NCBI GenBank assembly: GCA_946646575.1
Contig: CAMPCR010000002.1
Span: 1,408-65,407, forward strand
Length of the DNA: 64,000 nucleotides
Direction: 5' to 3'
Source of the DNA: an uncultured Verrucomicrobiota bacterium
GTDB lineage: Bacteria > Verrucomicrobiota > Verrucomicrobiia > Opitutales > UBA9783
This document shows positions 5,319-55,963 of the stretch, piece by piece. Position 1 is the stretch's first letter. The number at the start of each line of letters is the position of its first letter. The notes under the pieces were generated by a model, which was given only the letters and a program-made list of their open reading frames with translations, had not been told where the DNA came from and ran no database searches. The translations under genes were made by a program, and so were the position numbers.

Positions 5319-6599
5319 CTACAACACCACCCCTTCCTCCACAACTCCGCCTTTTTCGATCACCAAAATACCGTCTTTGACGTAAATCGGACCTTGATGA
5401 AAGCCGTTCGGTTTGCCTTCCGGCGAAAGGCGGACGTTGTTGCCGATGCGCACATTGCGGTCGATAACGGCGTTGCGAATGTAGCAGTTTTCACCGATGC
5501 CCATGCCGATTTTTTCGGAAGTCGTCGGGTTCACGGCGGGGTGTTCGTAATGGTCGGCGCCCATCAGATAAACGTTTTCCAACTGCGTTCCGCCGCGGAT
5601 AATCGACCGAATGCCGATGACGCAGCGGTTGAGGCGCACATCGGTGAGGATACTGCCGTCGGCGATAATCGAATGTTCGACGGTGCAACGGTTCAGTTTG
5701 GAAGCCGCCAAATGGCGCGGTTTGGAAAAGATCGGTGCCAATTCGTTGTAAAAATCAAATGCCGGCAGCGGATCGGTCAGCATTAGATTGGCTTCGAAGA
5801 ACGACGGAATGGTTCCGATATCCGCCCAATAGCCGTTAAAAAGGTAGCCGTACAGACGGAAACGATTCAGTGCCGTCGGAATAATATCTTTGCCGAAGTC
5901 GTGCAAATTCGACGCCAGGCAGGTTTTTAAGACGCCCGCTTTGAAGGCGTAAATGCCCATGGACGCCAAGCAGTACGGTTGGTCGCTCGGATCGTTGACG
6001 CCGGCGCGCAGATGGTCGCAAAGATGCAGTTCGCGGATGAGTTCTTCGTGTTGCGGTTTTTCGACGAAACGCCGAATGTGCCAATCGTCCGCCACATCCA
6101 TGATGCCGAACGCGGATGCCTGTGATGCGGGGACGGCTTTGGCGGCGACGGTAATGTCGGCGTGCGTATTTAAGTGATGCTTTACGAAGGCGGCGAGATC
6201 CATGCGATAGAGCTGGTCGCCGGACAAAATAAGCACCGTTTGTTCGTCCTCCAGCGGAATGTGAATGAGATTTTGCCGAACGGCATCGGCGGTTCCGCGG
6301 TACCAATCGTCATTTAAAGCGGTTTGTTCCGCCGACAACACTTCCACAAAACCTCCCGAAAAGTGGTCAAAGCGATAAGCCTGTCGAATGTGTCGATGGA
6401 GGGATTCGGTGTTGAATTGCGTCAGGAGATAGATTTGATTGTATCCGGCGTGCAGGCAGTTGCTGATGGGAATATCCACCAAACGGTATTTGCCGCCCAA
6501 CGGAACGGCGGGTTTGCAACGCACCTTCGTCAGCGGTTCGAGCCGCGTTCCGCGACCGCCTCCCATAATAATACAGACAACATTTGACGGACGACACAT
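5319..6599 (-). CDS. glgC: Glucose-1-phosphate adenylyltransferase
   Basis: Contains CIIMGGGRGTRLEPLT (nucleotide-binding loop) and WYRGTADAV. The C-terminal region has hexapeptide-repeat (left-handed beta-helix) character. Confidence 0.9.
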   Translation of the reverse strand: MCRPSNVVCIIMGGGRGTRLEPLTKVRCKPAVPLGGKYRLVDIPISNCLHAGYNQIYLLTQFNTESLHRHIRQAYRFDHFSGGFVEVLSAEQTALNDDWYRGTADAVRQNLIHIPLEDEQTVLILSGDQLYRMDLAAFVKHHLNTHADITVAAKAVPASQASAFGIMDVADDWHIRRFVEKPQHEELIRELHLCDHLRAGVNDPSDQPYCLASMGIYAFKAGVLKTCLASNLHDFGKDIIPTALNRFRLYGYLFNGYWADIGTIPSFFEANLMLTDPLPAFDFYNELAPIFSKPRHLAASKLNRCTVEHSIIADGSILTDVRLNRCVIGIRSIIRGGTQLENVYLMGADHYEHPAVNPTTSEKIGMGIGENCYIRNAVIDRNVRIGNNVRLSPEGKPNGFHQGPIYVKDGILVIEKGGVVEEGVVL

Positions 6600-6837
6600 A
6601 GGTATTTTTTTCCTTTTAACGGCAACGGAATGCGCACGAACGGTACTGCGATGCGACGGTTCCGAACGGCGACGGATGCAAATTCAGTATATAAAAAAGT
6701 CCCACAGGCGGCAAGCCTTTAACGTGCTTGAGCGATGGGAAGCGGTTTCCGAACAATCAGATGTTTCGAAACATGTAAAAACAGTACATATCGCATTTAA
6801 GTTGCAAAAATTTTCTTTTTTGCTTTTACTTTAGAGG

Positions 6838-9800
6838 ATGTGTAAATATTTCAAAATATACGCTGTCCTTCTGGCAGCTTTGGGATGCGGTCGCGCATGG
6901 TGCGATGTTCATTTTTTCTGCACACAGTGTAACTGTGGCGTCAACTGGAAGGAGTGGGGAAGCCATGCGGCGAAAAACCATGCGGGTAAGTATAAGAAGC
7001 CGTTCTTTTTGTGGTGCCCTTCTTCGAACTGTAAGTGTCCTTTGGCACCTGTTTCACCCTTGAAAATTGGCGGTCAAACGGTAGAGTGTGCCGATAGGCA
7101 TGTGCGTAAACACGGGGATAAGTATATCACATATGATCTTTGGTGTACAAAATGCAACATGGTTGTTCCGAGACATCTTTGGGAGATGCATTTGATACGA
7201 GTGCATCCGGACGTTGGTGGATTATACCAGGTTTTTTGTCCTTGTGGCAAGGAGAAGTCTTCCCAAAAAAAGGAAGACCAGTTTTTTGATAAGTCTGAGC
7301 CATCCGAATCGAGTGGATGTTTGCAGGGTTCTATAGAGTTTTATACCGTGTCTTCCGGCACACAGAGCGGGAATTTCGATGCCTTTGAAGGTGAGGGTGA
7401 CAATTCCGGATGGGTATGCTCGTGTTCGAGCACATACACTCAGGAAGATCAGTTGATTTGTAAGGAGTGCAAGAAGGATTGTAAGGAGTGCAAGAAGGAT
7501 TGTAAGGAGTGCGGGAAGGATTGTAAGGAGTGCAAGAAGGATGGTAAGGAGTGCGAGAAGGATTGTAAGGAGTGCGGGAAGGATGGTAAGGAGTGCAAGA
7601 AGGATGGTAAGGAGTGCAAGAAGGATGGTAAGGAGTGCAAGAAGGATGGTAAGGAGTGCGAGAAGGATGGTAAGGAGTGCGGGAAGGATGGTAAGGAGTG
7701 CGAGAAGGATGGTAAGGAGTGCGAGAAGGATTGTAAGGAGTGCGGGAAGGATAGAATCCCGTCCTATCTTGGGCTCGAGCACCTGTTTGCGAAACATAAA
7801 GACAAGGTGAAGGACTATTTGCCACAGTACGAATTTTATTGCAAAGAATGCAAAAAAACCTTCAAGACGGCACAGAAATGGGGCAGTCATGTGTTCAAGT
7901 GCTCGGGACGTTTGGAAAAAGAAGGTGAATGGAAGGTATTTTACTGTCCGTTGTGCGGGGAAAATCCGAAAACATTTTATGAAAAACACGCAGCCGAATC
8001 CCATCCGGAGCAGTGCATATATTGTTTCGAAAAGATTCAGAGTGAAAAATTACGTGAGGAGCATATGAAAGAAGCGCATAGAATTTTCTGTCCGTTTTGT
8101 AATCAGGATCAATTTGAAGTGCCGCTTGCGGTTCACATCGTGAGGGCGCATGAGATATGGGAAGGTCCCTGTCCCTGGGACAGGCGTCGTGAGGTTCGTT
8201 GTAAATGGTGTCCTCCCGGTTTAGGCGGTTTCAGAAGTTTTTACGCTGATGAAGCAATACAAGGCCGAAAAATGATACTGTATCACTTCATGCAAAAACA
8301 CACTTCGCAAATAAAAGAACTATACTGGAATCCCAATGGCTTGTACCGATTTATCGTCCAGCAAAAACTATACAATACGCAAAGCGTAGAGCCGTGTAAG
8401 AGTTTATACTTTCGGTATTCGGGATTGTGTGTCCTGAATGGGCATAGTAGTCATCCATCGCTAGACTGTGGGGGGTGTCCATATTGCAAAAGTCTGGTGA
8501 TACCAAAGAATAACGACCAGAAATGGTACACAAAAATTGAAGCAGCAAAGGAACATTGGAAGCTGTTTCACGCAGGCATGAAATATTGCCGGTCTTGCAA
8601 CTCTATTCATCAGGAAAAGGACTATGACAACCATTTATTGTCGTCGGAACACAGCGATAAATGTGAACCGCAAGCGGCATATGTAAAATGCCCGGACTGT
8701 CCTAAGGCGGTTTTGATGGAGGATTTGTATCACGGAGAGAAGAAACACGGCAAGGGATTTGTTTTTTGTACCGAATGCAAACGCTGGGGAACAGGGAGTT
8801 GTCCGGGTTGCGGGAAATGGGTGCTTGATGAGTGTGAGGAATGCCAGCAACGGATCTGCGGAACGTGTCCGCAGTGCGAGAAGAAGGCATTCGGATCCTG
8901 TTCCGAGTGCCAGCAATATGTGACAGGGGAGTGCTCCGAATGTAAGAAGGAAGTGAACGGAAAGTGTCCGACGTGTGTCACGAAAGTGTTGGGAAAATGC
9001 CCGGTTTGCGGGAACGAGGTAACCGGTTACTGTAGTCGATGTAAGCAACGGGTTGTCGGGAAATGTTCCGTGTGTGGTAGTAACTGTGCCTCGGGGGTCT
9101 GTTCGAACTGTAAACAAAAAGTAGGGAGTATCCCAAGGGGCTATATAGCTTTTGAATCCCATATGAGGGAGAAACACAACAAGAAGTTGCAAGATAAACA
9201 ACCGGCTAAACAAGCGGCTGAGAAGCTACGCGAGCAGGCAGAAACGTTCAAAGACGATAAGGATTTTCGTTGGTGTGAGGAATGCGGTGTTCACGTTTGT
9301 AACGAAGACAAAGATCGCATAGCCCATTGCAGGGACCGGCATAAAGGTTCCCGTAACGGGTGGTGCGAGCTTTGCAGGTGGGATTTTGATGGTACACTCA
9401 GCGATCATTTGGTGAGAAAACATTCGAAGGAGGTGCAACGTTGCAAGTGCGGTTTGTATGTTTTCAAAGATTTGGATAAACGGCATTTGGCGCGTCACAC
9501 ATGCTACTGCATCCAATGCAGGAAGGATGTACCGTTTGAACATATGAACAAGGCGCATAACTGTACTCCGAAGTGCAAGCCGATTGCGAATTACGGAGAA
9601 CTTGTATGGGACATTCAGCACGACGAACAATGCCAGGACCGTCACTGGTTTATGTGTAATTTCCTTGTCTGTGACTTTAGAGGGTCAAGTGATGACGCGT
9701 TTAGGCAGCATATCATGGAAGCTCACGGATGTACGGAAGATTGCAAGTATGAACGGAACGGTTACCAGTTTAAAATTACACATTGCGGTTGTATGTATGA

Positions 9801-10269
9801 TGAAAAAATACAGGTAAAATGTCCGTGCGACAAGTGGTGTGGCGTTAGGGGTACGAAAGGAAGCATTCTTGAGCACGTATGGTTGGAACACGGTTGTACC
9901 TGGGGTAAGTGTGGCTATGGAAAGGATGGGTTTAGACATGATGCGAATTGTCAATACATAGCTTCCATAACATTTTACCCATGTCCGTTTGGCGGATGTC
10001 GCTTCCAGGGTGTAGAGAAGGATATGGAGGAGCATATGTCTGATAAGCACAACTGCCTCGATTATTATTGCACTTTTAAAAAAGGTGTCCCGTCTCACGC
10101 CGTGACTTGCCCCAACAGAGTTTTCAAATGCCCCGTGTGTTCTAATAAGCCCTCCGTAACAAAGAAACATTTGAGGGATTTTCACGGGTGCCATGACTTT
10201 TGTCATATTAACGAGGAAGGTAACGGCATAGAGCATCATTATGAGTGTATAAACAAAGATCAATTTTAA
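6838..10269 (+). CDS. Giant exported (possibly lipidated) Cys/His-rich protein with multiple C2H2-like finger motifs
   Basis: One uninterrupted 3432-nt ORF. The N-terminus is hydrophobic, with a lipobox-like LLAALGC. The body is made of C-x2/4-C...H-x3-5-H units, a 7-aa tandem repeat and CxxC beads (see findings). Confidence 0.8.
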   Translation: MCKYFKIYAVLLAALGCGRAWCDVHFFCTQCNCGVNWKEWGSHAAKNHAGKYKKPFFLWCPSSNCKCPLAPVSPLKIGGQTVECADRHVRKHGDKYITYDLWCTKCNMVVPRHLWEMHLIRVHPDVGGLYQVFCPCGKEKSSQKKEDQFFDKSEPSESSGCLQGSIEFYTVSSGTQSGNFDAFEGEGDNSGWVCSCSSTYTQEDQLICKECKKDCKECKKDCKECGKDCKECKKDGKECEKDCKECGKDGKECKKDGKECKKDGKECKKDGKECEKDGKECGKDGKECEKDGKECEKDCKECGKDRIPSYLGLEHLFAKHKDKVKDYLPQYEFYCKECKKTFKTAQKWGSHVFKCSGRLEKEGEWKVFYCPLCGENPKTFYEKHAAESHPEQCIYCFEKIQSEKLREEHMKEAHRIFCPFCNQDQFEVPLAVHIVRAHEIWEGPCPWDRRREVRCKWCPPGLGGFRSFYADEAIQGRKMILYHFMQKHTSQIKELYWNPNGLYRFIVQQKLYNTQSVEPCKSLYFRYSGLCVLNGHSSHPSLDCGGCPYCKSLVIPKNNDQKWYTKIEAAKEHWKLFHAGMKYCRSCNSIHQEKDYDNHLLSSEHSDKCEPQAAYVKCPDCPKAVLMEDLYHGEKKHGKGFVFCTECKRWGTGSCPGCGKWVLDECEECQQRICGTCPQCEKKAFGSCSECQQYVTGECSECKKEVNGKCPTCVTKVLGKCPVCGNEVTGYCSRCKQRVVGKCSVCGSNCASGVCSNCKQKVGSIPRGYIAFESHMREKHNKKLQDKQPAKQAAEKLREQAETFKDDKDFRWCEECGVHVCNEDKDRIAHCRDRHKGSRNGWCELCRWDFDGTLSDHLVRKHSKEVQRCKCGLYVFKDLDKRHLARHTCYCIQCRKDVPFEHMNKAHNCTPKCKPIANYGELVWDIQHDEQCQDRHWFMCNFLVCDFRGSSDDAFRQHIMEAHGCTEDCKYERNGYQFKITHCGCMYDEKIQVKCPCDKWCGVRGTKGSILEHVWLEHGCTWGKCGYGKDGFRHDANCQYIASITFYPCPFGGCRFQGVEKDMEEHMSDKHNCLDYYCTFKKGVPSHAVTCPNRVFKCPVCSNKPSVTKKHLRDFHGCHDFCHINEEGNGIEHHYECINKDQF
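7462..7755 (+). repeat. In-frame tandem repeat of 14 x 21 bp, encoding K-E-C-(K/G/E)-K-D-(C/G)
   Basis: Read directly: aaggagtgc(aag/ggg/gag)aaggat(tgt/ggt) iterated 14 times from 7462. Variation is confined to codons 4 and 7 of the unit. Confidence 0.95.
8767..9126 (+). repeat. Protein-level repeat: eleven consecutive ~11-residue C-x2-C-x4-hydrophobic-x-G-x beads
   Basis: The beads are CTECKRWGTGS, CPGCGKWVLDE, CEECQQRICGT, CPQCEKKAFGS, CSECQQYVTGE, CSECKKEVNGK, CPTCVTKVLGK, CPVCGNEVTGY, CSRCKQRVVGK, CSVCGSNCASGV and CSNCKQKVGS. Confidence 0.9.
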
Positions 10270-10645
10270 CGGCGGAATACGTTTATTTCGAAAACATGAA
10301 AAAATAAGCGGAGAGTTGTAACGGTTCGCAAAGGGGGGGGGCGGCAAGTCGAAGGACGCGTATTCCTCGTAAAAAGCAAAAAACAAACGGGCAATCGGTT
10401 TTGTTCTTGTAAAAGCAATGATGAGGGTGCACGTGTTTCGGACGATAGAGAAAATGGTCATCGGTATATTGTGCACCGGCATACGGTGAGTGACGATATA
10501 TGGGATCGTTCGCTCGAATGTGCCCGCATGGGCTTGGTGTTTGGGTATTTTCTTTTGTAAATTCGTCGTTTTTTACATTTCCGATGCGAGTACGTCGTAA
10601 TTTTTTGGGATTGCAACGGGATAGCGTGGTCTTACCCTGAAAGCT

Positions 10646-12505
10646 GTGTGCGGCATCATCGGCTACATCGGTAAGGAAGAGGCATTGCCGGTTCTCTTGA
10701 AAGGTTTAACCTGCATGGAGTACCGCGGCTACGATTCGGCGGGATTGTCGGTCGGGGACGAGCAACATGCGTTTCGGACGGTGCGTGCCGTCGGGCGGGT
10801 TGCGCAACTGACGAAGCGCGCGGCGGAAGTTTCGTTGCGCGGGCATGTCGGCATCGGGCACACCCGTTGGGCAACGCACGGCGGCATTACCGAAAACAAC
10901 ACCCATCCGCATACCAGTTGCGACGGGAAATTTATTCTCGTTCACAACGGCGTGATCGAGAATTATGCCGCGCTGAAGGAGCATTTAAAGAAAAACGGGT
11001 GTACGTTTTACGGCGATACCGATACGGAGGTATTGGTCAATTTAATCGCTTGGCATTATCGGCAGTTTTCGGACATTTCAACTCTTTCCAAGCGTTTTAA
11101 GACGAGTGTCCGCAAAGCGTTGTCGGAACTGCAGGGAACCTACGGGATTGCGGTACTTTGCACCGATTGCCCGAACGAACTGATCGGCGCGCGCAAAAGT
11201 TCGCCGCTGGTACTGGGTGTCGGGAAAGACGAATTGTTTTTGGCAAGCGACATCGGTGCGTTCGGCGGTCGAACCAAGGATGTGGTGTTTTTGTCCGACG
11301 GCGAAATTGTCCATTTAAAAGGGAATGAATTCCATATTACGGGTGCGGACGAACGGGCGTTGTCGCCGACCGTTGAAACCGTCGATTGGGAGGGCGATGT
11401 TTCCGATTTGGGTTCTTATACGTCCTACATGCAAAAGGAGATTTTCGAACAGCCGAAATCGCTGGAAAATACAATGCTCGGGCGATTTTCAGCGGACGGA
11501 AGTTCGGCGCATTTGGGCGGTCTGCAACTATCCGCGGACGAATTGCGGCGCGCGGAACGCCTCTTGTTGATCGGTTGCGGAAGCGCGTATCATGCGTGCA
11601 AAGTCGGTGCGTATCTGCTCGAACGCTACGCGCGCATTCCGACGGAAGTCGAGTATGCATCGGAATTTCGCTATCGCAACGCGCCGTTGGGCAAAAATAC
11701 TTTGATATTCGTTGTGAGCCAATCGGGCGAAACGCGGGATACGCTGGATGCGTTGCACGAAGCGCGGCGAAAGGGACTTCGCGTGTTGGCGATTACCAAC
11801 GCCGTCGGATCAACGGTTGCGCGCGAATCGGACGGCGGCGTTTATCAGCGTTCGGAACCGGAAATCGGGGTTGCAAGCACCAAAGCGTTCACGGGGCAGA
11901 TTGCGACGTTCCTGCTGCTTTCGCTGTATCTGGGGCGCATGCGCGAAATGAGTTTTTCGGAGGGATGTCGGCTGGTGCAGGCACTGAAAGACCTGCCGAC
12001 GTGCGCGAAGGAGGTTTTGACGTCTTGCGACGATTGGGCGCGTGCGACGGCAAAAAAGTACGCAAAGTGTCCGAGTTTTTACTTTATCGGTCGGCAGATG
12101 CTGTTCCCGATTGCGCTGGAAGGTGCTTTGAAGTTGAAGGAAGTTTCTTATATTCACGCCGAAGCATATCCCGGGGGCGAACTGAAACACGGACCGATCG
12201 CGCTGATTGAACCGTCGTTCCCGACGTTCGTTTTGGCGTCCGACCCCGAAATGCTTTCGAAAAACATCAACAACATGACGGAAATCAAAGCGCGAAAAGG
12301 ACAGGTGATTGCGTTGGGCGTCGAAGGTCATCCGTTCCCGAACGATGTTTGCGACGATGCTTTTTATCTGCCGAAGGTACACGAAGCACTTTTGCCGATT
12401 ATCACGGTGCTTCCGTTGCAGTTGTTTGCCTATTATGCAGCTTTGGAACGCGGTTGCGACGTCGATAAACCGCGGAATTTGGCAAAAGCGGTTACGGTGG
12501 AGTAG
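10646..12505 (+). CDS. glmS: Glutamine--fructose-6-phosphate aminotransferase
   Basis: GTG start followed by CGIIGYIG (the N-terminal nucleophile Cys). SIS-domain blocks are present and the C-terminus is LAKAVTVE. Confidence 0.95.
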   Translation: MCGIIGYIGKEEALPVLLKGLTCMEYRGYDSAGLSVGDEQHAFRTVRAVGRVAQLTKRAAEVSLRGHVGIGHTRWATHGGITENNTHPHTSCDGKFILVHNGVIENYAALKEHLKKNGCTFYGDTDTEVLVNLIAWHYRQFSDISTLSKRFKTSVRKALSELQGTYGIAVLCTDCPNELIGARKSSPLVLGVGKDELFLASDIGAFGGRTKDVVFLSDGEIVHLKGNEFHITGADERALSPTVETVDWEGDVSDLGSYTSYMQKEIFEQPKSLENTMLGRFSADGSSAHLGGLQLSADELRRAERLLLIGCGSAYHACKVGAYLLERYARIPTEVEYASEFRYRNAPLGKNTLIFVVSQSGETRDTLDALHEARRKGLRVLAITNAVGSTVARESDGGVYQRSEPEIGVASTKAFTGQIATFLLLSLYLGRMREMSFSEGCRLVQALKDLPTCAKEVLTSCDDWARATAKKYAKCPSFYFIGRQMLFPIALEGALKLKEVSYIHAEAYPGGELKHGPIALIEPSFPTFVLASDPEMLSKNINNMTEIKARKGQVIALGVEGHPFPNDVCDDAFYLPKVHEALLPIITVLPLQLFAYYAALERGCDVDKPRNLAKAVTVE

Positions 12506-12621
12506 GGGCAGTTGATTTCGAAGTTCCAATAATGAGTATTTTTGCCGATTGTTCTCGAAGGTGTATTTTTAAGTCGTCTGCCGCAGGCTGTTGAGTGTAT
12601 AATCTTCGCAAGTAATTCGTG

Positions 12622-13386
12622 ATGAACTCCTCCGTCTCACTCGAAACGATTGTTTCTTTTTTGGATGAAACCTTCCAAACGCACCAAATCGAGGATTTCA
12701 CCAATGCCTGCAACGGATTGCAGTTAGCGAATGACGGCTCCGTAACATGCATTGTCGGTGCCGTGGACGCGAATGTGAACGTTATTAATGCGGCGATTGG
12801 GCAAAAAGCGGATTTGCTTTGCGTTCATCACGGTTTAACTTGGCGCGGGTTGCAACCGCTGACGGGGGCGTTGTATGACTTGTATAAACGTGCGATGGAG
12901 GCGAACCTGGCAATTTACAGCCTGCATCTGCCGCTCGACGAGCACCCGATGTACGGACATAACGTGTTGATTGCCAAAGCGCTCGGTGTATCGACGGAAA
13001 AACCTTTCATATCTTACAAAGATCGACTTTACGGTTGTGTTTGCAAAGGCATGCCGCTTGATGAACTTAGCCGACGATTGAAAGCCTCGTTCCCGCGTTC
13101 GTATCGTGCGTTTTGTTACGGCTCCGAACAACCCAAATGCATCGCGATTATGAGCGGCAGCGGCGGTCAGGAGTGTCTGAACGAAATGGTCGCATCCGAC
13201 ATCGATACGCTCGTTACGGGCGAAATCCATTATTCGGCAATTTCCTTCGCACAACTGTATCAGTTAAATTTGTTCGCCTGCGGACATTACGCCACCGAGT
13301 GCTTCGGCATCAAGGCATTGTTGCGGTTATTACACGAAAAAACACAACTGCCGTGCGAATTTATTGAGGATTTTTGCGAATTATAA
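12622..13386 (+). CDS. NIF3-family dinuclear metal-centre protein (YbgI/GTP cyclohydrolase 1 type 2 homolog)
   Basis: NIF3-like layout: DANVNVINAAIGQKADLLCVHHGL..W, a YSLHLPLDEH block, and C-terminal GHYATE. An ATG at 12622 lies directly after a GTG at 12619. Confidence 0.8.
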   Translation: MNSSVSLETIVSFLDETFQTHQIEDFTNACNGLQLANDGSVTCIVGAVDANVNVINAAIGQKADLLCVHHGLTWRGLQPLTGALYDLYKRAMEANLAIYSLHLPLDEHPMYGHNVLIAKALGVSTEKPFISYKDRLYGCVCKGMPLDELSRRLKASFPRSYRAFCYGSEQPKCIAIMSGSGGQECLNEMVASDIDTLVTGEIHYSAISFAQLYQLNLFACGHYATECFGIKALLRLLHEKTQLPCEFIEDFCEL

Positions 13387-13669
13387 GCGTCAAAGTGCTC
13401 CGATTTTTGAGAAAGGACATTTTATTTTTCTTGATAGCAACCTGTCAAGGACTTTGTTGGTCATAAGCGCAGAAACGGTTTATTTAGTTGTTTTAATATA
13501 AGCACGCGGTTACATGGGTACGCGGTTTTGTTTATTCGTTGCGTTTCCGCCTTGTTTCAAGGATGTAAATTTACATATTTCTAACCATTGCAAACCGTAC
13601 GCACGCGGTGTTGAACGAGAAAAGCGGTTTTACGTTGCGTTCGGTCTGTTTTCGGAGAGAAAATAAGAC

Positions 13670-14425
13670 GTGAGCGAAAGTGTGAGTATTGCCATTCCGG
13701 CGCGCATGGCATCGTCGCGTTTGCCGGGGAAAATGCTCGCCCTATTGGGCGGGAAGCCGGTACTTCAGCATGTCATCGAGCGTGTCAAGCAGGTGCGCTG
13801 TTGCAAAGAGGTCTATGTGGTCACGGACAGCGAAGAAATTGTTCGTTTGGCGCAAACGCTCGATGTGCACGGATTGATGACGTCGCCGAATTGTATTTGC
13901 GGAACGGAACGCATTGCATCGGTTTTGGAACACATCAACGGCGATATTATTTTTAACGTCCAGGGCGATGAGCCGTTCATCGAACCAAAACTTTTGGAGG
14001 ATATGGCGGAGGCAATGCATTTGTCAAACGGAGATGTTTTGATGCCGTCGTATCGATTAAAGACAACGGCGGAACTGTTCAATCCGTCCGTTACGAAGGT
14101 TGTTTGCGACAAAGACGGATGCGGTTTGTATTTTTCCAGAAGTCCCATTCCCTATGTGAGAGATTGCGAACAAGCTCAATGGACGGAGAAGTATGCATTT
14201 TGGGGCGTTTTTGGCGTTTATGTTTTCCGACGGGAAGCCCTGAAAGCGTATCGAAACTTTCCCGTAAGTCCCTTGGAAAAAGCGGAATCCCTGGAACAAC
14301 TGCGCTGGCTCTCCAACGGCTACCGCATTGCAACGTTCCCCGTCGATACGCACCCGCTGTGCTCCATCGATACGGCGGAAGATTTAAAGCGTGCGGAAGA
14401 ATTTATAAGGCACCAAGTCCGTTAA
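13670..14425 (+). CDS. kdsB: 3-deoxy-manno-octulosonate cytidylyltransferase (CMP-KDO synthetase)
   Basis: Contains IAIPARMASSRLPGKMLALLGGKP and NVQGDEPF, and is collinear with KdsB overall. GTG start. Confidence 0.9.
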   Translation: MSESVSIAIPARMASSRLPGKMLALLGGKPVLQHVIERVKQVRCCKEVYVVTDSEEIVRLAQTLDVHGLMTSPNCICGTERIASVLEHINGDIIFNVQGDEPFIEPKLLEDMAEAMHLSNGDVLMPSYRLKTTAELFNPSVTKVVCDKDGCGLYFSRSPIPYVRDCEQAQWTEKYAFWGVFGVYVFRREALKAYRNFPVSPLEKAESLEQLRWLSNGYRIATFPVDTHPLCSIDTAEDLKRAEEFIRHQVR

Positions 14426-15564: not shown

Positions 15565-16020
15565 ATGCGGATAAAATTTTCACTTTGACGGAAAATTTTT
15601 ATATATGCGCGGAAGACGATGTCAACCGCCAACCGACAAACCAAACCGAAAAAAACTTCAGGAAAAAACACCACACGCATCTGTCGAATACGCAACAGAA
15701 TACCCCTTATAAACAACAACGCAGCCAGGCACTCCGCGGCACCGACGCACAAGAGTACCGTTGCTGTCTTCCGACCCTGGCGGGGTTCATCCGTTCGCCC
15801 TGCACGGAACCCGACTGCAAGCTCATGCTGTGTTTAAGAACGCAGGCTGTCAAACGGAAACGCCCGTCGGAAGTCGCGGAATTGTCCCGGAAACCGTACT
15901 TTCTCTCGGATTCGGTGCGGAAAAACAAACCCGACGATTTGCCGTTTATGTCGACGTATTTCGCGTGTCTCGATAAAAAAGTCTTGCCTTCTGGCAAAAA
16001 AATTCCATGGGAGAATTATT

Positions 16021-17103
16021 ATGAATATGAAAAAATCACTGAAATATCTCGTTGCGGCTGCCGTTGCGGGCAGCGCCTGTACGGCTGACGTTTTCGGAGG
16101 GAAGATTAGCGTCAATCTGTTTTCCTTTTGCCATGGAGATAATTGGCGGAAGCTCGCGAACTTATGGGGTCAATCTCCGAAGGAAGTCTACGAACAGTGT
16201 CTGAGAGAGGGATTAAGAGAGAAATTGAATAATACGCATTTGTATATTCTGATTTCTTCTTACAAACAGGCGGAAATATACGGCAAAGAGATTGTTAACA
16301 GCATGGAAGCCAACGCGAAAAACCTGGCGGATCTCGGTGTTACTTCTCACATTATCGTTCGTTGCGACGGAGAAAAAACGGAGAACGGGGAAGATGTTAT
16401 TTCGGGCGATCTTCGGACGTATGCCAAACTTTTGAACGCAAAGGAGATTGCCTTTAATGTGCACGAATCCAAAAGTGTCAAACCGTCGGATTTTACCTAC
16501 GAACATCACAAGCCCAATGAAGCGCATTGGGAGTTGGTTGCCAACGAGCAAAATCTCGGTTGCAGCGGAACGCGTCACGAGAGTATCGATGCGATTGAGA
16601 AGGAAGTTAATCAACTGAGCGAACAGGGAAAGCATGTGTACATCGGAATTTTTGACGGCGACGATTGGGTGCATGAAGACTTTTACCCGGTGTTGTTGCT
16701 CAATGCGCTTTATACAAATGCGCCCGTTTCCAACTATAACGGGCGAATGGGTGCTCACGGACTCGAATACGAAAACTTGCGGGAGGGTCGTCTGTTGGGT
16801 ACCGATGAGCAGTGCACTTGGACGTTATACACGGATATGAAGAGCGATGACGTTGAAGAAACCCTGAGTAAGCAATACGCGAATTCGGGTTACGGTGGCG
16901 AGTGTTGTACGACAAAGATTTTCAGAGCGGATTATTTCTACAAAAGATTGAATTCGTTATTGGAGAAAGAGCTGAAGAGGAAGTCGGATGCACAACGAAA
17001 TTGGATCGACTTAAGGGATCTGACATTGCTGGACGGATTTTGCGACGGTGCCTGTACATGTACAACAGAGAAGAACTTGTTCCATTATACGCAACATAAA
17101 TAA
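16021..17103 (+). CDS. Exported/anchored GT-A (GT2-like) glycosyltransferase-like protein, paralog 1
   Basis: Signal/lipobox-like LKYLVAAAVAGSAC. Shared family blocks: THLYILISSYKQ, MEANA, VRCDGE, AHWELVANEQNLGCSGTRHESIDAIEKEV, HVYIGIFDGDDWVHEDFY, VSNYNGRMGAHGLE, CCTTKIF and CTCTTEKNLFHYT. Confidence 0.8.
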   Translation: MNMKKSLKYLVAAAVAGSACTADVFGGKISVNLFSFCHGDNWRKLANLWGQSPKEVYEQCLREGLREKLNNTHLYILISSYKQAEIYGKEIVNSMEANAKNLADLGVTSHIIVRCDGEKTENGEDVISGDLRTYAKLLNAKEIAFNVHESKSVKPSDFTYEHHKPNEAHWELVANEQNLGCSGTRHESIDAIEKEVNQLSEQGKHVYIGIFDGDDWVHEDFYPVLLLNALYTNAPVSNYNGRMGAHGLEYENLREGRLLGTDEQCTWTLYTDMKSDDVEETLSKQYANSGYGGECCTTKIFRADYFYKRLNSLLEKELKRKSDAQRNWIDLRDLTLLDGFCDGACTCTTEKNLFHYTQHK

Positions 17104-17148
17104 AAATCGTGTAGACTTTTGCAAACAAATTTCCTTATATACAGAATT

Positions 17149-33515: not shown

Positions 33516-35405
33516 TCAAAGGTTGCTGCGGAGTTTTTTTTGTTGTTCAAGCTGCTTAAGACGTTCCAAGGTAGCTTTTGCCGCCGTTTGGATGTCTTTA
33601 TTTTCGTTGGTCGATAATTCCTCTAGCAAATTTTCATCTTCGTTATCAAGGGCGTCCTTGAGTTTAAGAAAATCAATGATTTCGTTGCGTACGTTTTCAT
33701 CTCCCAAATCATCAATTTGAAGATTTTGTCGCGTTTGTTCGATATCCATGTTAAGGATACCATTCGATTTTCTATCGGAAGCGTACAATTTTGCGGCTTC
33801 CGATAATCGTTTTCTTCTTAAGAAATTTGTTTCAAAATTCACTTTTTGTTCACTTTGTTCACGCAGATATTTGGGTAGATTACTTTCTAGGTTTCTGATT
33901 TTTTGAGCCAACGGTGTATTCGGTGTATTGCCTTTTAGCGTTTTGAAATATTCGACAAGGAAAATGCAATCTTCGTCTTTCAGCAGTATATTGTCATTCG
34001 ATAGTAGTTCTTCGAAAGTCTTGTTACTGTCAGGAGATGTCTGCAGTGTCAGCAGAATTTCGAGCAGTTGCAACTTTTGCAGCAGCTCGATCGAAGCGGA
34101 GCTGCTACTTTTCTTCTTAATCGTTTTAAGCCGATCGAGTACGCTTGATGCGTGATCCTTTCCCATTCTTTTTTGTACGATGCATTCGAAATTACCTTTG
34201 ATAAAATTCGACATTTCTTTATCTTCTTGTTCCGCATATGCTTCCATGATGTCCTTATACAACTCCGTGTATTGGACATATGTTTCCCGAGGCATGACTT
34301 TCTCAAATGTTTTTTCTGATTTCTTGCTCGGAATACACGCCTTCGAAAGTTCCGCGAAGGCATCTTTCAGCGATTCAATGTCGTCTTTCGAAAGATTCTT
34401 GTTCGGAAGCCTTCTACCGTCCTTTTCTTTAATCGTCAGTTTTTCTACAGTACATCGCCAATTGTCTATGAGTGGTTTTAGTTCCTTTTTTTTTGCTTGC
34501 AGTTTTTCTTTGTTTTCTTCAGTAGCAGTGTCGGGGTAAAGTCGTTCCAGAAACGGAAGCCATATTTTTCTGTTACAACTGTTCAAGGTCTTTAACTGAT
34601 CTTTTAAGAAAGGACTTCTCGTTGAATTCTCGCATGGAATCCAGTCATGTTTCAGAGTGCTATCAAGTTTTTCAAGTTTTTCCTTGAGACCTTGATGTAT
34701 CTTATCCATGAGTTTTCCGTTAAAGATATCCTTTACCTCGGTCAACGAAAAATTTCTACTACGTCCTTGAACGTCGATGAGTTGCTGTTTTGCATCATAG
34801 TAACATTCCGCAATCGTAAGACTTCGCGCCAGTGCTTTGTAAAATTTGAGACAGTCGACCAGGAGTTTTCGGTTTTTCATAGACGGAAGACACTGTTTGA
34901 TTTTATCAAAGTTTGTTCGGATTTGCTCTTGAATGCTTTTGTACTCCTCAGGGTGCATTTTGATATTACGCATTTCCAATTCATTTTTTTTGAGTTCTTT
35001 TCGCTTCTCTTCATTTGCGTTGCATTCAATTTTGAGATTTTTATTTAGTTGTTCCTTGAATGCGTCAAAATGTTTTTCGAGCGATATCTCGATATCCTCT
35101 GCTTTACTCTGATTACCGAAAATCAATGCATAAACCGCGTGCCCGAACGCTTTCAGCGCATCGAGAATCTTGCCGCCGATGCTTTTCGGTTTAACGTTAT
35201 CAACGGGACGGATGATGCGGGATTTTTCCGGTTGATGCAGATCGTTCAGAAAGGTTTTATTGAATGTCTGCAACGTTTCGGCGGTGACCATCGGTTGCGG
35301 ATTGATTTGAACGTTGATTGCTTTACCGTTTTCGTCGAGCGTTTGCATTTCGACGGTTACGGGTTGATGGGGAATGGGTGCAGGAGTGCCGAACGTACCG
35401 CTCAT
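33516..35405 (-). CDS. Large coiled-coil orphan protein (629 aa), effector-like
   Basis: AT-rich. The start was set at ATG 35405 (MSGTFGTPAPIPHQP...) so that it does not overlap the gyrB leader. Beyond the first ~100 residues it is K/E/L/N-rich with heptad-like sequence. I recognised no family. Confidence 0.75.
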   Translation of the reverse strand: MSGTFGTPAPIPHQPVTVEMQTLDENGKAINVQINPQPMVTAETLQTFNKTFLNDLHQPEKSRIIRPVDNVKPKSIGGKILDALKAFGHAVYALIFGNQSKAEDIEISLEKHFDAFKEQLNKNLKIECNANEEKRKELKKNELEMRNIKMHPEEYKSIQEQIRTNFDKIKQCLPSMKNRKLLVDCLKFYKALARSLTIAECYYDAKQQLIDVQGRSRNFSLTEVKDIFNGKLMDKIHQGLKEKLEKLDSTLKHDWIPCENSTRSPFLKDQLKTLNSCNRKIWLPFLERLYPDTATEENKEKLQAKKKELKPLIDNWRCTVEKLTIKEKDGRRLPNKNLSKDDIESLKDAFAELSKACIPSKKSEKTFEKVMPRETYVQYTELYKDIMEAYAEQEDKEMSNFIKGNFECIVQKRMGKDHASSVLDRLKTIKKKSSSSASIELLQKLQLLEILLTLQTSPDSNKTFEELLSNDNILLKDEDCIFLVEYFKTLKGNTPNTPLAQKIRNLESNLPKYLREQSEQKVNFETNFLRRKRLSEAAKLYASDRKSNGILNMDIEQTRQNLQIDDLGDENVRNEIIDFLKLKDALDNEDENLLEELSTNENKDIQTAAKATLERLKQLEQQKKLRSNL

Positions 35406-35418
35406 ACCACAAATATAA

Positions 35419-38103
<2,685 letters not shown>

Positions 38104-45320: not shown

Positions 45321-45407
45321 GCCCGGATGGCGGAATCGGCAGACGCGTCAGACTCAAAATCTGATTCCTGCAAGGGAGTGAGGGTTCGACCCCCTCTCCG
45401 GGTACCA
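45321..45407 (+). tRNA. tRNA-Leu (anticodon CAA)
   Basis: Acceptor stem GCCCGGA/TCCGGGT. Anticodon arm TCAGA-CTCAAAA-TCTGA. Long variable arm TTCCTGCAAGGGAGT. T arm GAGGG-TTCGACC-CCCTC. Discriminator A and an encoded CCA. Confidence 0.9.
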
Positions 45408-45565: not shown

Positions 45566-46912
45566 TCAAAACTTGTTGAGAGTTTCATTCCGTTGATCCA
45601 ATTGTTCTTGGATCTTTGAGTTGTGTGTAATACCTCTGTTACCGCTCGCATCCGTTTGAAACTTGTTCGTTGTATTCCAGTTGTTTTTTGATGCGTCAAA
45701 AGGCTTTTTCGGCATGTCTTGGTTGTTGTTGTCGACCGTTTTGCTGTATGCCTTTTTTCTCTCCCATACGGACGGTTTCTGCTCTTCTTCCGTTTTTTCG
45801 GTTTCTTTGAAAGTAATTCGTTTTCTTTTTCCGATTTTTTGAACGGACGGCTTTCCCGGTTTCGAGGGGGATGGGTTCGGGGGTGTTTCCTCTTCCGGAA
45901 TCGGATCCAATGAAGGAGGTTTGTGAGCAACGGTACTTCTCTTTTGATCGAATTGAGACGGCGCCGTGTTGCCTTGCCCCTTTGGTTGTTGAGGCACTTT
46001 TTTGGCTTTTCCGTGCCCTGGCGGTTCAAGGTTCGGCGACGGAGAAGCATCCGTTTTCGGGTTGCGTTTTATATCGGGTTCCTTCGCAACTTTTTCGAAG
46101 GTACTCTTAAAAGCTGACCGAATGGTTTCAAACGACGCTTGCCGTTCCCCGTGAGCCGGCGGTTGCGGAATGTTCGTTGCATTTTGCGGTTGCATACCGA
46201 CGGGTTTCTCCGCGATCGTTGGCGCGGAAGCATCCGGATCGGGAACGTTGCGGATGTTCGGAATATCCGTTGCCCCTGCGCGGGATAGAAGTTTCATGAT
46301 TTCCAGCGACAGTTGATGCGTTTCCGTTGCAAGCTTTGCCAAATTCTTTGCTGCTTGCATCAGGTGTAATCGACAACCGACATCTGTGGTTTTCTTAAGT
46401 TTGGCTTGCAGTTCGTCAATACGTGTTTCGCACATATCGATGACTTCTCCGTTTTCGGCAATCTTATTTTTGAGTATCAGTGTTTCCGTTGTTCCCAATC
46501 GCTTTCCGTTTTCTTTCAGGTGAGATTGCAAGACTTGTAATTGCGCTTCCGTTTCCGCATGTTCGACCTTGAAGCAATGCAACAGCCTTTCCGTTTCCAA
46601 TTTAATCGCTTTGGCGTTTTTGCGGGCGGCTTGAATTTCCGGCGAATCGCAAAGGTTCAGGAGAGATCCGATCCTTTGGAAAAATTTTGCGCATTTATCC
46701 AGGAAGCGGTCGAGTCGGGATTCAACGGAGCGATTTTTTACGCCGGCGGTTGCGTCCGACAGCAGCGTACCGACGCTGTCCGTTCCGCTTTTACCCATCG
46801 CTCCGAGCTTGGTGCACGGTTGTTCGGAACCGGAAATTTTGTTGGTATTTTGCGTTTGTTCAATGCCTGCGGACGACGGATCGACGGTCGTAAGTTGAAG
46901 TTCAAGGGGCAT
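45566..46912 (-). CDS. Hypothetical protein (448 aa): disordered N-terminus, helical middle, Pro/Lys-rich tail
   Basis: The N-terminus MPLELQLTTVDPSSAGIEQTQNTNKISGSEQ is S/T/N/Q-rich. The helical segment is ...LETERLLHCFKVEHAETEAQLQVLQSHLKENGKRLG.... The C-terminal ~200 aa are P/K/T/N-rich and low in complexity. Confidence 0.7.
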   Translation of the reverse strand: MPLELQLTTVDPSSAGIEQTQNTNKISGSEQPCTKLGAMGKSGTDSVGTLLSDATAGVKNRSVESRLDRFLDKCAKFFQRIGSLLNLCDSPEIQAARKNAKAIKLETERLLHCFKVEHAETEAQLQVLQSHLKENGKRLGTTETLILKNKIAENGEVIDMCETRIDELQAKLKKTTDVGCRLHLMQAAKNLAKLATETHQLSLEIMKLLSRAGATDIPNIRNVPDPDASAPTIAEKPVGMQPQNATNIPQPPAHGERQASFETIRSAFKSTFEKVAKEPDIKRNPKTDASPSPNLEPPGHGKAKKVPQQPKGQGNTAPSQFDQKRSTVAHKPPSLDPIPEEETPPNPSPSKPGKPSVQKIGKRKRITFKETEKTEEEQKPSVWERKKAYSKTVDNNNQDMPKKPFDASKNNWNTTNKFQTDASGNRGITHNSKIQEQLDQRNETLNKF

Positions 46913-47073: not shown

Positions 47074-47892
47074 TTACGTTTTGTTCCCGAAGTTTTCTAC
47101 CTTTTCCCCCAAACTTTTTATTCCCTTCCCGATCGATTGGATCCATTGCTTGGTGTTTTCGCTAATCTTGTTGGATGCTCCTTCTATTTTTTGCAAGGCG
47201 CTTTTGAAGATGGCTTCCATGTCTCCTTTTATTTCGTCCACATTTAATTTCATTTTTTGCGGCGTTGAGATAGGAAGACGGTCGATGATCTCGTTAATAT
47301 AAATTACGCCTGCCGCCAGTACTTCTTTGCCCATTTTTCCGCGATTATACGTATCCAGTTCTTCCATAATATCGCTCCTCAGCTTAGAAAGATTTTGCGC
47401 CATCTTGTCACAATATGTTTGTGCATTTTCAGGTATTTTTTTTAAACTCTCGCTTACGCTCGAGGTTGTAAGGTCGTACAGTAACTGCTCCAGCGGTACC
47501 GTGATATCGAAAGCCGGTGCCGAAGTTGAGTACATGGCAACTCTGAAATTGTGACAAATATCCGCAATCTTTTGCCCTAGTGTCCTGAAAAAATCTCCGA
47601 AACTTGAAGTCTTGATCTCTGTTGGTTTCTTGTAGTTTAAATTTCGCAACGTAGAAAGCGCATTTTGCGAACTTCGATATTTCAGATCTTTTTTGAAGTT
47701 CGTGAAAGTTTCCTCAACGGAATACTTTCCATCGTTACCGACGAGCTCGTCTAAGCCTTTTAATGATTTTGTTGGTTCTGCTATGATTCTGCTGATGCTG
47801 TTGTTGTTCTCGATGGACATGATGTTTTTTGTTACCTGACTTATCCGAATATCATCTCTCAAACGGAACCGTTCCGTTATCTGCCGTGACAT
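47074..47892 (-). CDS. Hypothetical helical protein (272 aa, or 248 aa from ATG 47820), effector-like
   Basis: AT-rich. Alternative start MSIENNNSISRIIAEPTKSLKG. It carries the FGDFFRTLGQKIADICHNFRVAM motif shared with the two large coiled-coil proteins. Confidence 0.65.
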   Translation of the reverse strand: MSRQITERFRLRDDIRISQVTKNIMSIENNNSISRIIAEPTKSLKGLDELVGNDGKYSVEETFTNFKKDLKYRSSQNALSTLRNLNYKKPTEIKTSSFGDFFRTLGQKIADICHNFRVAMYSTSAPAFDITVPLEQLLYDLTTSSVSESLKKIPENAQTYCDKMAQNLSKLRSDIMEELDTYNRGKMGKEVLAAGVIYINEIIDRLPISTPQKMKLNVDEIKGDMEAIFKSALQKIEGASNKISENTKQWIQSIGKGIKSLGEKVENFGNKT

Positions 47893-54453: not shown

Positions 54454-55587
54454 TTACGGTGTGCCCATTTTGGCTTGTTTGGCATCTATGTGTGGTTTTA
54501 GCACTTCATCTAAGAACCAAATAAGTGTAGGGTCTAAAACTTTCTTTTTCTCCGAAAGCTCATCGCAAAGCGAGTCAAGAGAATCCTTGCACTGGTTTAC
54601 CATTATTTCGGCAACCTGTTTAAAATCGTTTTCACAGTATTGGGTTGGCCAACACCAGGCAAACGCTGAGTGATAATACTGCTGAGCGGTTGTTTCACGA
54701 AAGAGGCGCCGCGCATCATCCGTATATACCCGGGGATCATCTATTTTAACGGGTTTGGTTTCAGCCCACCAATCTCCTTTAAACAAACACTGACGACCCC
54801 AACACTGGACAAAAGCATTATCATTATACCCCACGAAGGCGTCAAAAATCTCCTCTGGTGACAGAGCTTTTGCGCCTTTTCGCGATTTTAAAAATTCATA
54901 CATGTATTTATCCCACACAGGATCCACATTTTCATCCCCTTCCGACGGGCGGGAATTATTGCACAATTCCCACTTCGCTGCCTTTTTGCTGACTCTTTCG
55001 TATCCGCATATCAGCGTACGCAGAACCTCAGAATTGACTTGCCCGACGTAGAGTTCGGGATCCATCATCCGTTTATGCATGGCATGCATCTCACACTCAT
55101 ATTGTTTCTGAAAACGATCGCACACATCGAGTAAGCTCAAAGCCGGTATTATTGATCGGGAAAGCAGTGGCAAATTAGAGGAAGGACTCGAATGTGAAAA
55201 ATAGCAACATGTCTTCCCCCAAAGGTGTTTATTTTTATCGAGGACTGTCTTGAAGTTTGACTCAAGAGTGTCAACCTGAATCGACCCCCCTGTATTGAGG
55301 ATATGGTTGAGCTCTACGTAATCCGTCTTTTCGTTTGATTTTTTATAATCTTCAACAATTTTCATCATCTTATCAGCGCATCCACAACATATCAGTTCTG
55401 CTTTGCGCAGTTCTACAGGGACACGTTTTTTGTCTAGAAAATCGCTCACTTGTTTTGAACAGGCTTCCAGTATTTTGCTCCACACCCGTTCTCGATAATC
55501 CGGATTGTAATCATCACCCCGTGTACAATTCACACCGACCGTCAGTGCCGAAACCAAGAGGAACATGTTCTTTGTAATATTTTTCAT
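54454..55587 (-). CDS. Exported Cys-rich hypothetical protein (377 aa)
   Basis: Signal peptide MKNITKNMFLLVSALTVGVNC. Many Cys and Trp residues are scattered through it (CCGC, CCYF, CWGRQC, WCWPTQYC). AT-rich and adjacent to two tRNA genes. I recognised no family. Confidence 0.7.
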   Translation of the reverse strand: MKNITKNMFLLVSALTVGVNCTRGDDYNPDYRERVWSKILEACSKQVSDFLDKKRVPVELRKAELICCGCADKMMKIVEDYKKSNEKTDYVELNHILNTGGSIQVDTLESNFKTVLDKNKHLWGKTCCYFSHSSPSSNLPLLSRSIIPALSLLDVCDRFQKQYECEMHAMHKRMMDPELYVGQVNSEVLRTLICGYERVSKKAAKWELCNNSRPSEGDENVDPVWDKYMYEFLKSRKGAKALSPEEIFDAFVGYNDNAFVQCWGRQCLFKGDWWAETKPVKIDDPRVYTDDARRLFRETTAQQYYHSAFAWCWPTQYCENDFKQVAEIMVNQCKDSLDSLCDELSEKKKVLDPTLIWFLDEVLKPHIDAKQAKMGTP

Positions 55588-55842: not shown

Positions 55843-55918
55843 TGGCGGGGAAAGCGGGACTCGAACCCGCGACCTACGGTTTAGAAAACCGCAGCTCTAT
55901 CCGCTGAGCTACTTCCCC
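55843..55918 (-). tRNA. tRNA-Arg (anticodon TCT)
   Basis: Reverse complement: GGGGAAG-TA-GCTC-AGCGGATA-GAGC-T-GCGGT-TTTCTAA-ACCGT-AGGTC-GCGGG-TTCGAGT-CCCGC-TTTCCCC-G-CCA. Confidence 0.88.
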
Positions 55919-55963
55919 GCAATTTCAACGCCGACATCTCAAAAAAACGCCATCGGCAAAAAC

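Follow-up and report, generated by a model that had tools for sequence, protein, structure and literature searches.

A putatively exported, fast-diverging Cys/His-rich finger-array protein from an uncultured verrucomicrobial lineage

A long ORF built from finger-like modules

The DNA analyzed here (the window) is a 64,000-nucleotide stretch of contig CAMPCR010000002.1 (positions 1,408 to 65,407 of the forward strand) from an uncultured Verrucomicrobiota bacterium, assembly GCA_946646575.1. Its open reading frame (ORF) at 6838-10269 on the + strand, referred to below as the finger gene, encodes a protein of 1143 amino acids with 119 Cys (10.4%), 56 His (4.9%) and 12% Lys, which had been described from its sequence as an exported chain of about 17 eukaryotic-type zinc fingers. 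The coordinates and length of the ORF were exact, and every finger string quoted in that original prediction is present in the translation. Sites were assigned as Cys/His quartets from conservation across an alignment with eight homologs, all metagenomic proteins without Pfam domains, found among 5.8 billion clustered proteins at 38-92% identity. Individual relatives are given below by protein (P) and locus (L) numbers. The features of the ORF are as follows.

6838..10269, + strand: complete ORF with ATG start (ORF list), coding for a putatively exported Cys/His-rich zinc-finger-array protein of 1143 aa
6838..6894, + strand: predicted Sec-type signal peptide, residues 1-19 (MCKYFK / IYAVLLAALG / CGRA), by heuristic criteria
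6919..7206, + strand: N-terminal module of three putative C2H2 fingers (ZF1-3: C28/C31/H43/H48; C60/C65/H88/H92; C103/C106/H118/H123), ligands in 8/8 homologs, C65 in 7/8
7207..7458, + strand: Ser/Gly/Glu-rich linker, poorly conserved in the conservation map, with an AlphaFold predicted local distance difference test score (pLDDT) <35; tentative Cys4 site (C134, C136 and C194 invariant; C196 in 5/6)
7459..7797, + strand: split C2H2 finger C208, C211 ... H315, H320 with a repeat array in its loop, a tentative site with all four ligands invariant
7460..7752, + strand: in-frame 21-bp tandem repeat, 14 copies, KECKKD[CG] heptads (Tandem Repeats Finder, 94% matches)
7840..8151, + strand: four putative tandem fingers (ZF4, C2HC; ZF5-7, C2H2; residues 335-438), 16/16 ligands invariant
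8152..8748, + strand: middle region with two long-loop and two short C2H2 fingers (ZF8-11) and a tentative site C445, C520, H536, H539, from ligand conservation; structure prediction is not confident here
8767..9177, + strand: ten CxxC pairs with an 11-residue period (residues 644-746), five putative Cys4 zinc-ribbon or knuckle sites, 20/20 Cys invariant; then a long C2H2 finger, C755/C758/H775/H780
9274..10248, + strand: C-terminal block of 13 contiguous SIAH/TRAF-like fingers (ZF13-25; residues 813-1137), 52/52 ligands invariant in 7/7 homologs

The motif C-x2-4-C-x7-13-H-x3-5-H was matched 17 times in the protein, compared with 1.4 ± 1.4 times (maximum 7) in 500 composition-preserving shuffles of its 1143 residues, and CxxC occurred 33 times compared with 12.2 ± 3.1; the finger pattern is therefore far above chance. 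The exact x12 form of the motif (C-x2-4-C-x12-H-x3-5-H) was found three times, with 0.2 expected. The earlier figure of 17 is thus reproduced as a pattern count, but it falls short of the number of sites: ligand conservation defined 30 four-ligand sites (16 short C2H2, 3 long-loop C2H2, 6 C2HC and 5 Cys4), with ligands invariant in nearly all aligned homologs, and leftover invariant Cys and His residues gave approximately three tentative extra ones, for a total of about 30-33 putative metal sites. Most units have 7-13 residues between Cys and His (mostly 10-12) with an H-x4-H ending, and an aromatic residue ahead of the first Cys is common. The ZF4-7 block is the best conserved part across the wider family, and from ZF16 onward C2H2 and C2HC units alternate in the C-terminal block. 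Self-BLAST of the protein gave no internal repeats beyond identity, and the profile shows weak similarity between finger blocks.

At the extreme C terminus (10246-10266), most full-length orthologs end in C-x-N-[KR]-x-x-F (for example, ECINKDQF, DCKNRHKF and ECKNRFEF) with a conserved terminal aromatic residue; short Lys-rich C-terminal extensions replace this ending in P0002, P0006 and P0008. The ending could be a sorting signal.

Ligand conservation, profile matches and predicted fold

Conservation across the alignment is concentrated on the putative ligands. Invariant columns made up 84% of Cys and 82% of His positions, and every other residue type reached 42% or less; conservation of His in homologs, on which the finger assignment had been staked beforehand, was thus found. 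Aromatic and aliphatic residues ranked next, with F, W and V the top non-ligand residues, and K, E, S, Q and N ranked lowest, as would be expected if each domain were small, with a minimal core and an exposed surface. The invariance of His favors metal ligation over disulfides alone, and the ligated metal would most likely be zinc.

Searches of the whole protein against Pfam and NCBIfam at E <= 10 gave no family at threshold. The sole match in the Pfam zf-C2H2 clan was zf-C2H2_jaz at residues 333-351 (19.3 bits against a cut-off of 22.6), and Pfam zf_RING-like matched the CxxC region weakly (E 0.012). Eight related family members were also scanned; none reached a Pfam zinc-finger gathering score, and the distant ones gave sub-threshold matches to zf-Di19, zf-C2H2_4 and zf-C2H2. 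With no Pfam gathering score reached, the protein falls outside the curated C2H2 families. At E <= 10 there was also no match to the TRAF-type families of Pfam (PF02176 and relatives), to Ros/MucR in Pfam or NCBIfam, or to the chlamydial Cys-rich envelope families (OmcA/OmcB) in Pfam, and RING and MATH domains were absent.

Likeness to C2H2 fingers was detected by comparison of profiles. An exhaustive search of 1.84 billion representatives with the family profile retrieved P0029 (E 4.6e-9), a protein that itself scores 153 bits on Pfam zf-C2H2 (PF00096), and hhalign placed residues 332-439 in register with four P0029 fingers (probability 96.9%, E 1.8e-10); the profile-level likeness is limited to these residues. 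Profile searches of the PDB gave weak matches of residues 85-142 to the zinc-binding protein Churchill (2jox, E 5e-4), of the C-terminal block to SIAH2 fingers (E 0.26) and of the CxxC region to the Zn-ribbon RNA-binding protein 9fny (E 2.5).

AlphaFold modeled residues 805-1143 (13-row alignment) as repeated beta-beta-alpha units with a pLDDT of 80.4. When this model was compared with the PDB using Foldseek, matches were obtained to CTCF fingers (E 3.6e-4), ZFP568, TFIIIA and the N-terminal domain of TRAF6 (E 0.025); among viral models, the best match was a Pithovirus C2H2 protein (E 1.3e-5), together with a Pithovirus TRAF-type finger protein (E 4e-4). All of these matches were C2H2 or TRAF-type finger arrays of eukaryotic or giant-virus origin. 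Foldseek with the full-length model gave no match below E 1e-3. Sequence and predicted structure together support a zinc-finger-like nature of the units, of C2H2 and TRAF/SIAH type. The eukaryotic-type C2H2/C2HC character originally proposed is therefore backed by the alignment with P0029 and the beta-beta-alpha model but not by any Pfam gathering score.

The array resembles several known systems in part. It shares with eukaryotic C2H2 arrays (PF00096; CTCF, TFIIIA and ZFP568), its top Foldseek matches, tandem modules of approximately 25 residues, a Cys2-His2 quartet, an aromatic residue before the first Cys and a predicted beta-beta-alpha fold. Eukaryotic arrays have x12 spacing, H-x3-H and TGEKP linkers, whereas here the spacing is x7-13 (mostly 10-12) with H-x4-H and no TGEKP; the protein also mixes in C2HC and Cys4 units, carries a putative signal peptide, is bacterial and reaches no Pfam gathering score. 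The C-terminal block, with its alternating C-x4-C-x11-12-H-x4-H and C-x3-4-C-x8-12-H-x2-3-C units of the CPF.GC.F.G type, is reminiscent of the TRAF/SIAH fingers of TRAF6, SIAH2 and giant-virus proteins. Unlike those proteins, to which its matches are weak, it has no RING, TRAF-C/MATH or substrate-binding domain, has 13 units in a row rather than 2-5 and is probably exported. Residues 644-746 recall DnaJ-type CxxCxGxG and zinc-ribbon repeats: ten CxxC pairs recur there every 11 residues, often with a G after them, which suggests consecutive Cys4 sites; the region differs from those repeats in having five such sites in a row, no DnaJ context and weak matches only. Ros/MucR proteins are likewise bacterial with Cys2His2 coordination, but they are DNA-binding gene regulators with a single finger in a 58-residue beta-beta-beta-alpha-alpha globular domain (PMC9779718), in contrast to the approximately 30 small units and putative signal peptide found here.

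Sequence divergence, family and genomic context

Wherever a locus extends across both flanks, its gene order is glgC(-) / finger gene(+) / glmS / NIF3 / kdsB / def. Proteins encoded in the flanks share 85-99% identity between the window and four related loci (92-99% for GlgC, GlmS and KdsB), compared with 49-69% for the finger protein. Ratios of nonsynonymous to synonymous substitution rates (dN/dS) were estimated by the Nei-Gojobori method (NG86) with bootstrap 95% confidence intervals (CI):

Window versus L085: dN/dS 1.72 (CI 1.37-2.25); 2.0 without Cys/His codons
L081 versus L084, a separate pair in a more distant clade: dN/dS 1.63 (CI 1.24-2.21)
Window versus L090, a 97%-identical pair: dN/dS 3.1 (lower bound 1.31, upper bound undefined)

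In the comparison with L085, the finger gene has a dS of 0.117, inside the flank range of 0.106-0.27, and the flanks have dN/dS of 0.05-0.10. Sliding windows along the finger gene gave dN/dS >=0.9 throughout. More distant pairs gave values <1, as expected from saturation. It is rare in bacteria for a whole gene to show dN/dS above 1 beside neighbors under strong purifying selection. A pseudogene or relaxed constraint was rejected, as no lineage has a broken ORF, the ligands do not vary and dN/dS stays above 1 even at its lower bootstrap bound; this combination of intact ORFs and fixed ligands points to diversifying selection on a rigid scaffold rather than decay.

The 21-bp repeat also varies. 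It has 14 copies in the window, 6 in L090 (97%-identical protein) and none in L085 (68% identical), and the more distant relative L081 carries other repeats at the same place (39 bp x 3 and 27 bp x 2). In P0002, which is without the repeat, the site of the split finger reads CQECKRDDILCHLGLEHLFAEH, an ordinary finger. The repeat thus appears to have invaded the loop of the finger formed by C208, C211 ... H315, H320.

Approximately 25 of the 37 representatives matched in the search of 1.84 billion belong to the Cys/His-rich finger family; P0030-P0041 were disregarded as spurious, low-complexity matches to the CxxC region. An identical protein occurs in the metagenome-assembled genome (MAG) GCA_002363035.1 (DEWA01000017.1) and in assembly SHIW14 / SAMN02144231, a label that we take to denote sheep rumen. 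The homologs come from assemblies labeled STEW19, from study PRJEB21624, presumably a cattle-rumen survey, and from one Joint Genome Institute metagenome. The record labels and study PRJEB21624 suggest a rumen origin for the protein and its homologs, and the family appears to occur solely in metagenomes as far as known, from ruminants wherever the source was readable. The best relatives of the window GlmS (64%) are gut-associated Puniceicoccales/Opitutales MAGs of the Verrucomicrobiota, which indicates that the source bacterium belongs to a poorly represented verrucomicrobial lineage. No relative came up when the protein was used in a pattern scan of the GTDB genome representatives, although such a scan detects near-exact 8-mers only and is not proof of absence; tblastn against 80 GlmS-anchored GTDB loci found no relative beside glmS in the nearest genomes.

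MAG GCA_002363035.1 contains a second, distant paralog, P0013 (764 aa; L094 4265-6559, DEWA01000041.1), adjoining a tRNA_bind gene. The orthologous locus of a relative (L096 4263-8587) has two tandem paralogs of 512 and 837 aa, and here the paralog is 50% identical compared with 89% for the flank, which indicates paralog turnover. The gene upstream codes for a 694-aa LRR_5 protein with a signal-like N terminus. The cattle-rumen contigs L092 (1322-14956) and L093 carry a tandem array of five or six finger-family paralogs of 289-959 aa (Cys 8-10%, His 6-7%), with 9-15 finger motifs in each of the five full-length copies and a near-identical signal peptide, MKNIIYKHLKTCVLSLCVAVSCGDKAFGE, in four of them. 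The contig with this array has a G+C content of 43% and the array adjoins a threonyl-tRNA synthetase gene.

Finger arrays had been called essentially unknown in bacteria, and this was too strong, because arrays are present in two metagenomic proteins of unknown organism. P0029 consists of an N-terminal domain without fingers, approximately 10 fingers scoring above the Pfam zf-C2H2 threshold and a hydrophobic helix at the C terminus; in P0042, an evident signal peptide precedes approximately 11 classical fingers and a C-terminal domain of non-finger type. Both appear to be uncharacterized. With P0029 and P0042 known, a finger array as such may not be unprecedented. What seems new, from sequence, is an exported mixed C2H2/C2HC/Cys4 array of approximately 30 sites, in a metagenome-only family with gene-wide positive selection. 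A literature search for secreted bacterial C2H2 proteins returned only papers on fungi, plants or transcription activator-like effectors, and one for the accession of the MAG gave no match. Recent horizontal transfer from a eukaryote was not supported: the G+C is like that of the surroundings, synteny is stable and no close eukaryotic homolog was found among the 1.84 billion representatives.

The surroundings of the finger gene are core chromosome, with the ordinary metabolism of a diderm fermenter; the window contains pgi, glgC, glmS, kdsB, def, proS, pfk, gap, gyrA/B, frr, pyrH, mlaD and rseP. There are no mobile elements around the gene and no secretion-system or other symbiosis genes within the window, and in G+C content the gene region hardly differs from the DNA on either side. 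On the + strand at 6001-14000, GC skew is +0.22 to +0.23 over the finger gene and +0.16 and +0.11 over its downstream neighbors, and cumulative GC skew climbs over most of the window. The noncoding features are as follows.

6600..6837, no strand assigned: intergenic region shared with the divergent glgC, and start context of the ORF (six-locus alignment)
15720-15816, - strand: small signal recognition particle (SRP) RNA (Rfam)
895-968, - strand; 45321-45404, + strand; 55846-56038, - strand: four tRNA genes (Rfam)

Mean column identity across six loci in the intergenic region is 79%, and the ATG and first codons are conserved. We do not claim a regulatory element here, because this conservation is about that predicted by a flank dS of 0.1-0.3; upstream of the ORF there was no convincing + strand sigma-70 site and no Shine-Dalgarno at normal spacing, and the promoter/terminator scan was uninformative. 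The gene caller gave P0004 (L084) and P0006 an N-terminal extension of approximately 70 residues (MRTNGTAMRR...), which is a read-through of the conserved 5' leader (window 6631-6780); in the window, a stop interrupts this frame. In all, translation probably starts at the conserved ATG (6838). Rfam searches of the window returned the tRNAs and SRP RNA only, none near the finger gene.

Pfam also assigns no family to several further sizeable ORFs of the window: 33516-35573, 45566-46912, 47074-47892, 54454-55587 (lipoprotein-like N terminus) and 58954-60576 (signal-like N terminus). At 16021-20674 (+) lie four tandem paralogous ORFs of 360, 405, 413 and 332 aa, mutually 39-64% identical, with signal-peptide-like N termini and no Pfam family; L081 and L082 have ORFs of similar sizes, without Pfam match, downstream of def. 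The four look like a second lineage-specific exported family close to the finger gene.

Putative export and interpretation of the array

The N terminus has K3 and K6 in the n-region, a 10-residue hydrophobic core, which is too short for a membrane helix, and small residues at -3/-1 with no twin-arginine; by manual criteria, it fits a Sec/signal peptidase I substrate. The segment LAALGC also fits a PROSITE-type lipoprotein pattern (PS51257-type) at Cys17. This lipobox pattern is present in seven listed relatives (P0001-3, P0005, P0008, P0010 and P0026) and absent from P0007, P0009, P0012 and, by pattern scan, other distant members. Shared across the family is an N-terminal element of a K-containing n-region, 10-13 hydrophobic residues and then G-R-A-[FLW]-[GC]. 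As several members are missing the lipobox Cys, the last motif looks like a general cleavage region, possibly a signal peptidase I site. The same signal layout, with the first finger directly after it, recurs in every member with an intact N terminus, even where identity elsewhere is <30%, and similar N termini are present in other ORFs of the window that are putatively exported, one of them ending ...SCQRAFCDS. The signal/lipobox N terminus of the original prediction thus stands as a Sec-like element conserved across the family, with a fitting pattern at Cys17, but the lipobox Cys is not kept in distant members. Sec-dependent export of the protein is a well-supported inference from these features, and any metal would then have to be acquired outside the cytoplasm. 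We infer that the protein is surface-exposed.

The earlier description mentioned neither the gene-wide dN/dS >1 nor the family of paralogs nor the variation of the repeat, all of which point to a variable exported protein. We consider it about 50% probable that the product is an exported, zinc-stabilized, diversifying modular protein, either displayed on the surface or secreted. It would be exported through Sec by a rumen verrucomicrobium and either held at the envelope or cell surface (by a lipid anchor in this lineage, provided that Cys17 is acylated) or released. Each of approximately 30 modules of about 25 residues would fold round a metal ion, likely zinc, on an invariant Cys/His quartet, so that metal knuckles could take the place of disulfides as the stabilizing principle, which might suit the strongly reducing rumen. 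The exposed residues between the ligands and the in-frame repeat would diversify under selection while paralogs are gained and lost. Taken together, the export signal, rigid ligand scaffold, hypervariable exposed residues, repeat variation and paralog turnover suggest a variable exported protein at an antagonistic interface; the antagonist or partner could be phage, grazing protozoa, host antibody or a competing microbe. The protein could be either a target escaping recognition or a binder tracking a changing ligand.

The closest analogy, in function alone, may be the variant-specific surface proteins of Giardia and other Cys-rich coat proteins of protozoa. The Giardia proteins are Cys-rich and CXXC-rich, with signal peptides, reported zinc binding and, often, tandem repeats (PMC2996952). 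The two have in common approximately 10% Cys, many CXXC, a (here predicted) signal peptide, membership of a multigene family, high variability and an extracellular existence in the anaerobic gut. The Giardia proteins differ in being eukaryotic, in having a C-terminal membrane anchor and conserved tail and in lacking systematic His ligands; their variation comes from switching among approximately 200 genes, compared with sequence divergence of one or few loci here, and no sequence similarity was detected.

Several points weigh against an exported and zinc-stabilized variable protein. Export is read from the N terminus by heuristics, the lipobox Cys is not conserved, which makes surface anchoring uncertain, and bacteria seldom have Cys-ligated zinc sites beyond the cytoplasm. 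The full-length AlphaFold model (9 sequences) has a strand-strand-helix at each unit but is poor (pLDDT 46), and the AlphaFold models contain no metal. Foldseek TM-scores (template modeling scores) were low and carry little weight alone; low values are expected for flexible beads-on-a-string arrays, and the matches are therefore supporting rather than decisive. The NG86 method is simple, and all but a few sequence pairs are too divergent to be free of saturation.

An alternative that we regard as unlikely, although still worth weighing, is an effector released by the bacterium to act on a eukaryotic cell or within it (rumen ciliate, fungus or host epithelium), with fingers that mimic nucleic-acid-binding or signaling adaptors; an arms race with host targets would also explain dN/dS >1. 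The finger types are otherwise typical of eukaryotes and giant viruses, there are weak matches to SIAH2 and Churchill, the genes form a positively selected multigene family and the nearest GlmS relatives are from gut-associated Puniceicoccales/Opitutales MAGs. The genomic setting argues the other way, with core metabolism rather than a secretion system or symbiosis gene in the window and G+C round the gene like its surroundings, as does the protein itself, which has no TGEKP-type linkers, reaches no Pfam threshold and has no close eukaryotic homolog among the 1.84 billion representatives. Rumen Verrucomicrobia, at the phylum level, are also more prevalent free-living than associated with protozoa (PMC6217230, PMC11222294).

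It is improbable that the protein serves as a metal buffer or thiol-redox sink of the periplasm or envelope, a giant metallothionein-like molecule that sequesters metals (Zn, Cu, Cd or Fe) or scavenges oxidants. Approximately 130 invariant Cys/His, enough for about 32 metal sites, and an export signal are what such a function would use, but a storage role would not lead one to expect dN/dS >1 along the whole gene, turnover of paralogs or a variable repeat, and the conserved aromatic/aliphatic core and predicted beta-beta-alpha units indicate structural sites rather than storage.

A cytoplasmic nucleic-acid-binding regulator or defense protein, in which the N-terminal stretch is a membrane tether or nothing rather than a cleaved signal, seems more doubtful again. 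Nucleic acids are the usual targets of zinc-finger arrays, and anti-phage defense proteins are also positively selected. Set against this, the charges (K3 and K6 ahead of the hydrophobic core, net neutral beyond it) and the core length of 10 residues are those expected of a signal peptide that leaves the rest of the protein outside; the signal-like N terminus is kept in every intact paralog despite extreme divergence elsewhere; and the window annotation, for which PADLOC was not run, has no neighboring defense genes.

Least probable is the originally suggested disulfide-cross-linked envelope protein, functionally like OmcA/OmcB of the Chlamydiota, which share the PVC (Planctomycetes, Verrucomicrobia, Chlamydiae) superphylum with Verrucomicrobiota and in which OmcA is a lipoprotein: high Cys and an export signal are common to both, but OmcA/OmcB are cross-linked by disulfides and without His ligands, whereas here His is as invariant as Cys and always at finger spacing, no chlamydial Cys-rich family was matched in Pfam, the predicted fold is of beta-beta-alpha fingers and the rumen is strongly reducing.

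If the exported, zinc-stabilized reading is correct, the family could, tentatively, be the first described bacterial family of extracytoplasmic zinc-finger arrays, in which metal knuckles, in a strongly reducing gut, would stand in for disulfides to form a protease-resistant modular scaffold, surface-bound or secreted, with exposed faces that an arms race remodels. The family would be a bacterial equivalent of the variant surface proteins of protozoa, or else a binding scaffold that diversifies naturally. If the protein is not exported, it would nevertheless be a bacterial zinc-finger array of unusual length that evolves fast and has no annotated relatives. If both export and zinc binding hold true, zinc-finger arrays would no longer be only intracellular and mostly eukaryotic nucleic-acid binders, and anaerobic bacteria would have a route to stable extracellular proteins without disulfides. 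A small, metal-stabilized and naturally hypervariable scaffold could also interest protein engineers. The selection pattern would mark the family as a front-line molecule in rumen conflict and may help in studying how this uncultured verrucomicrobial lineage lives.

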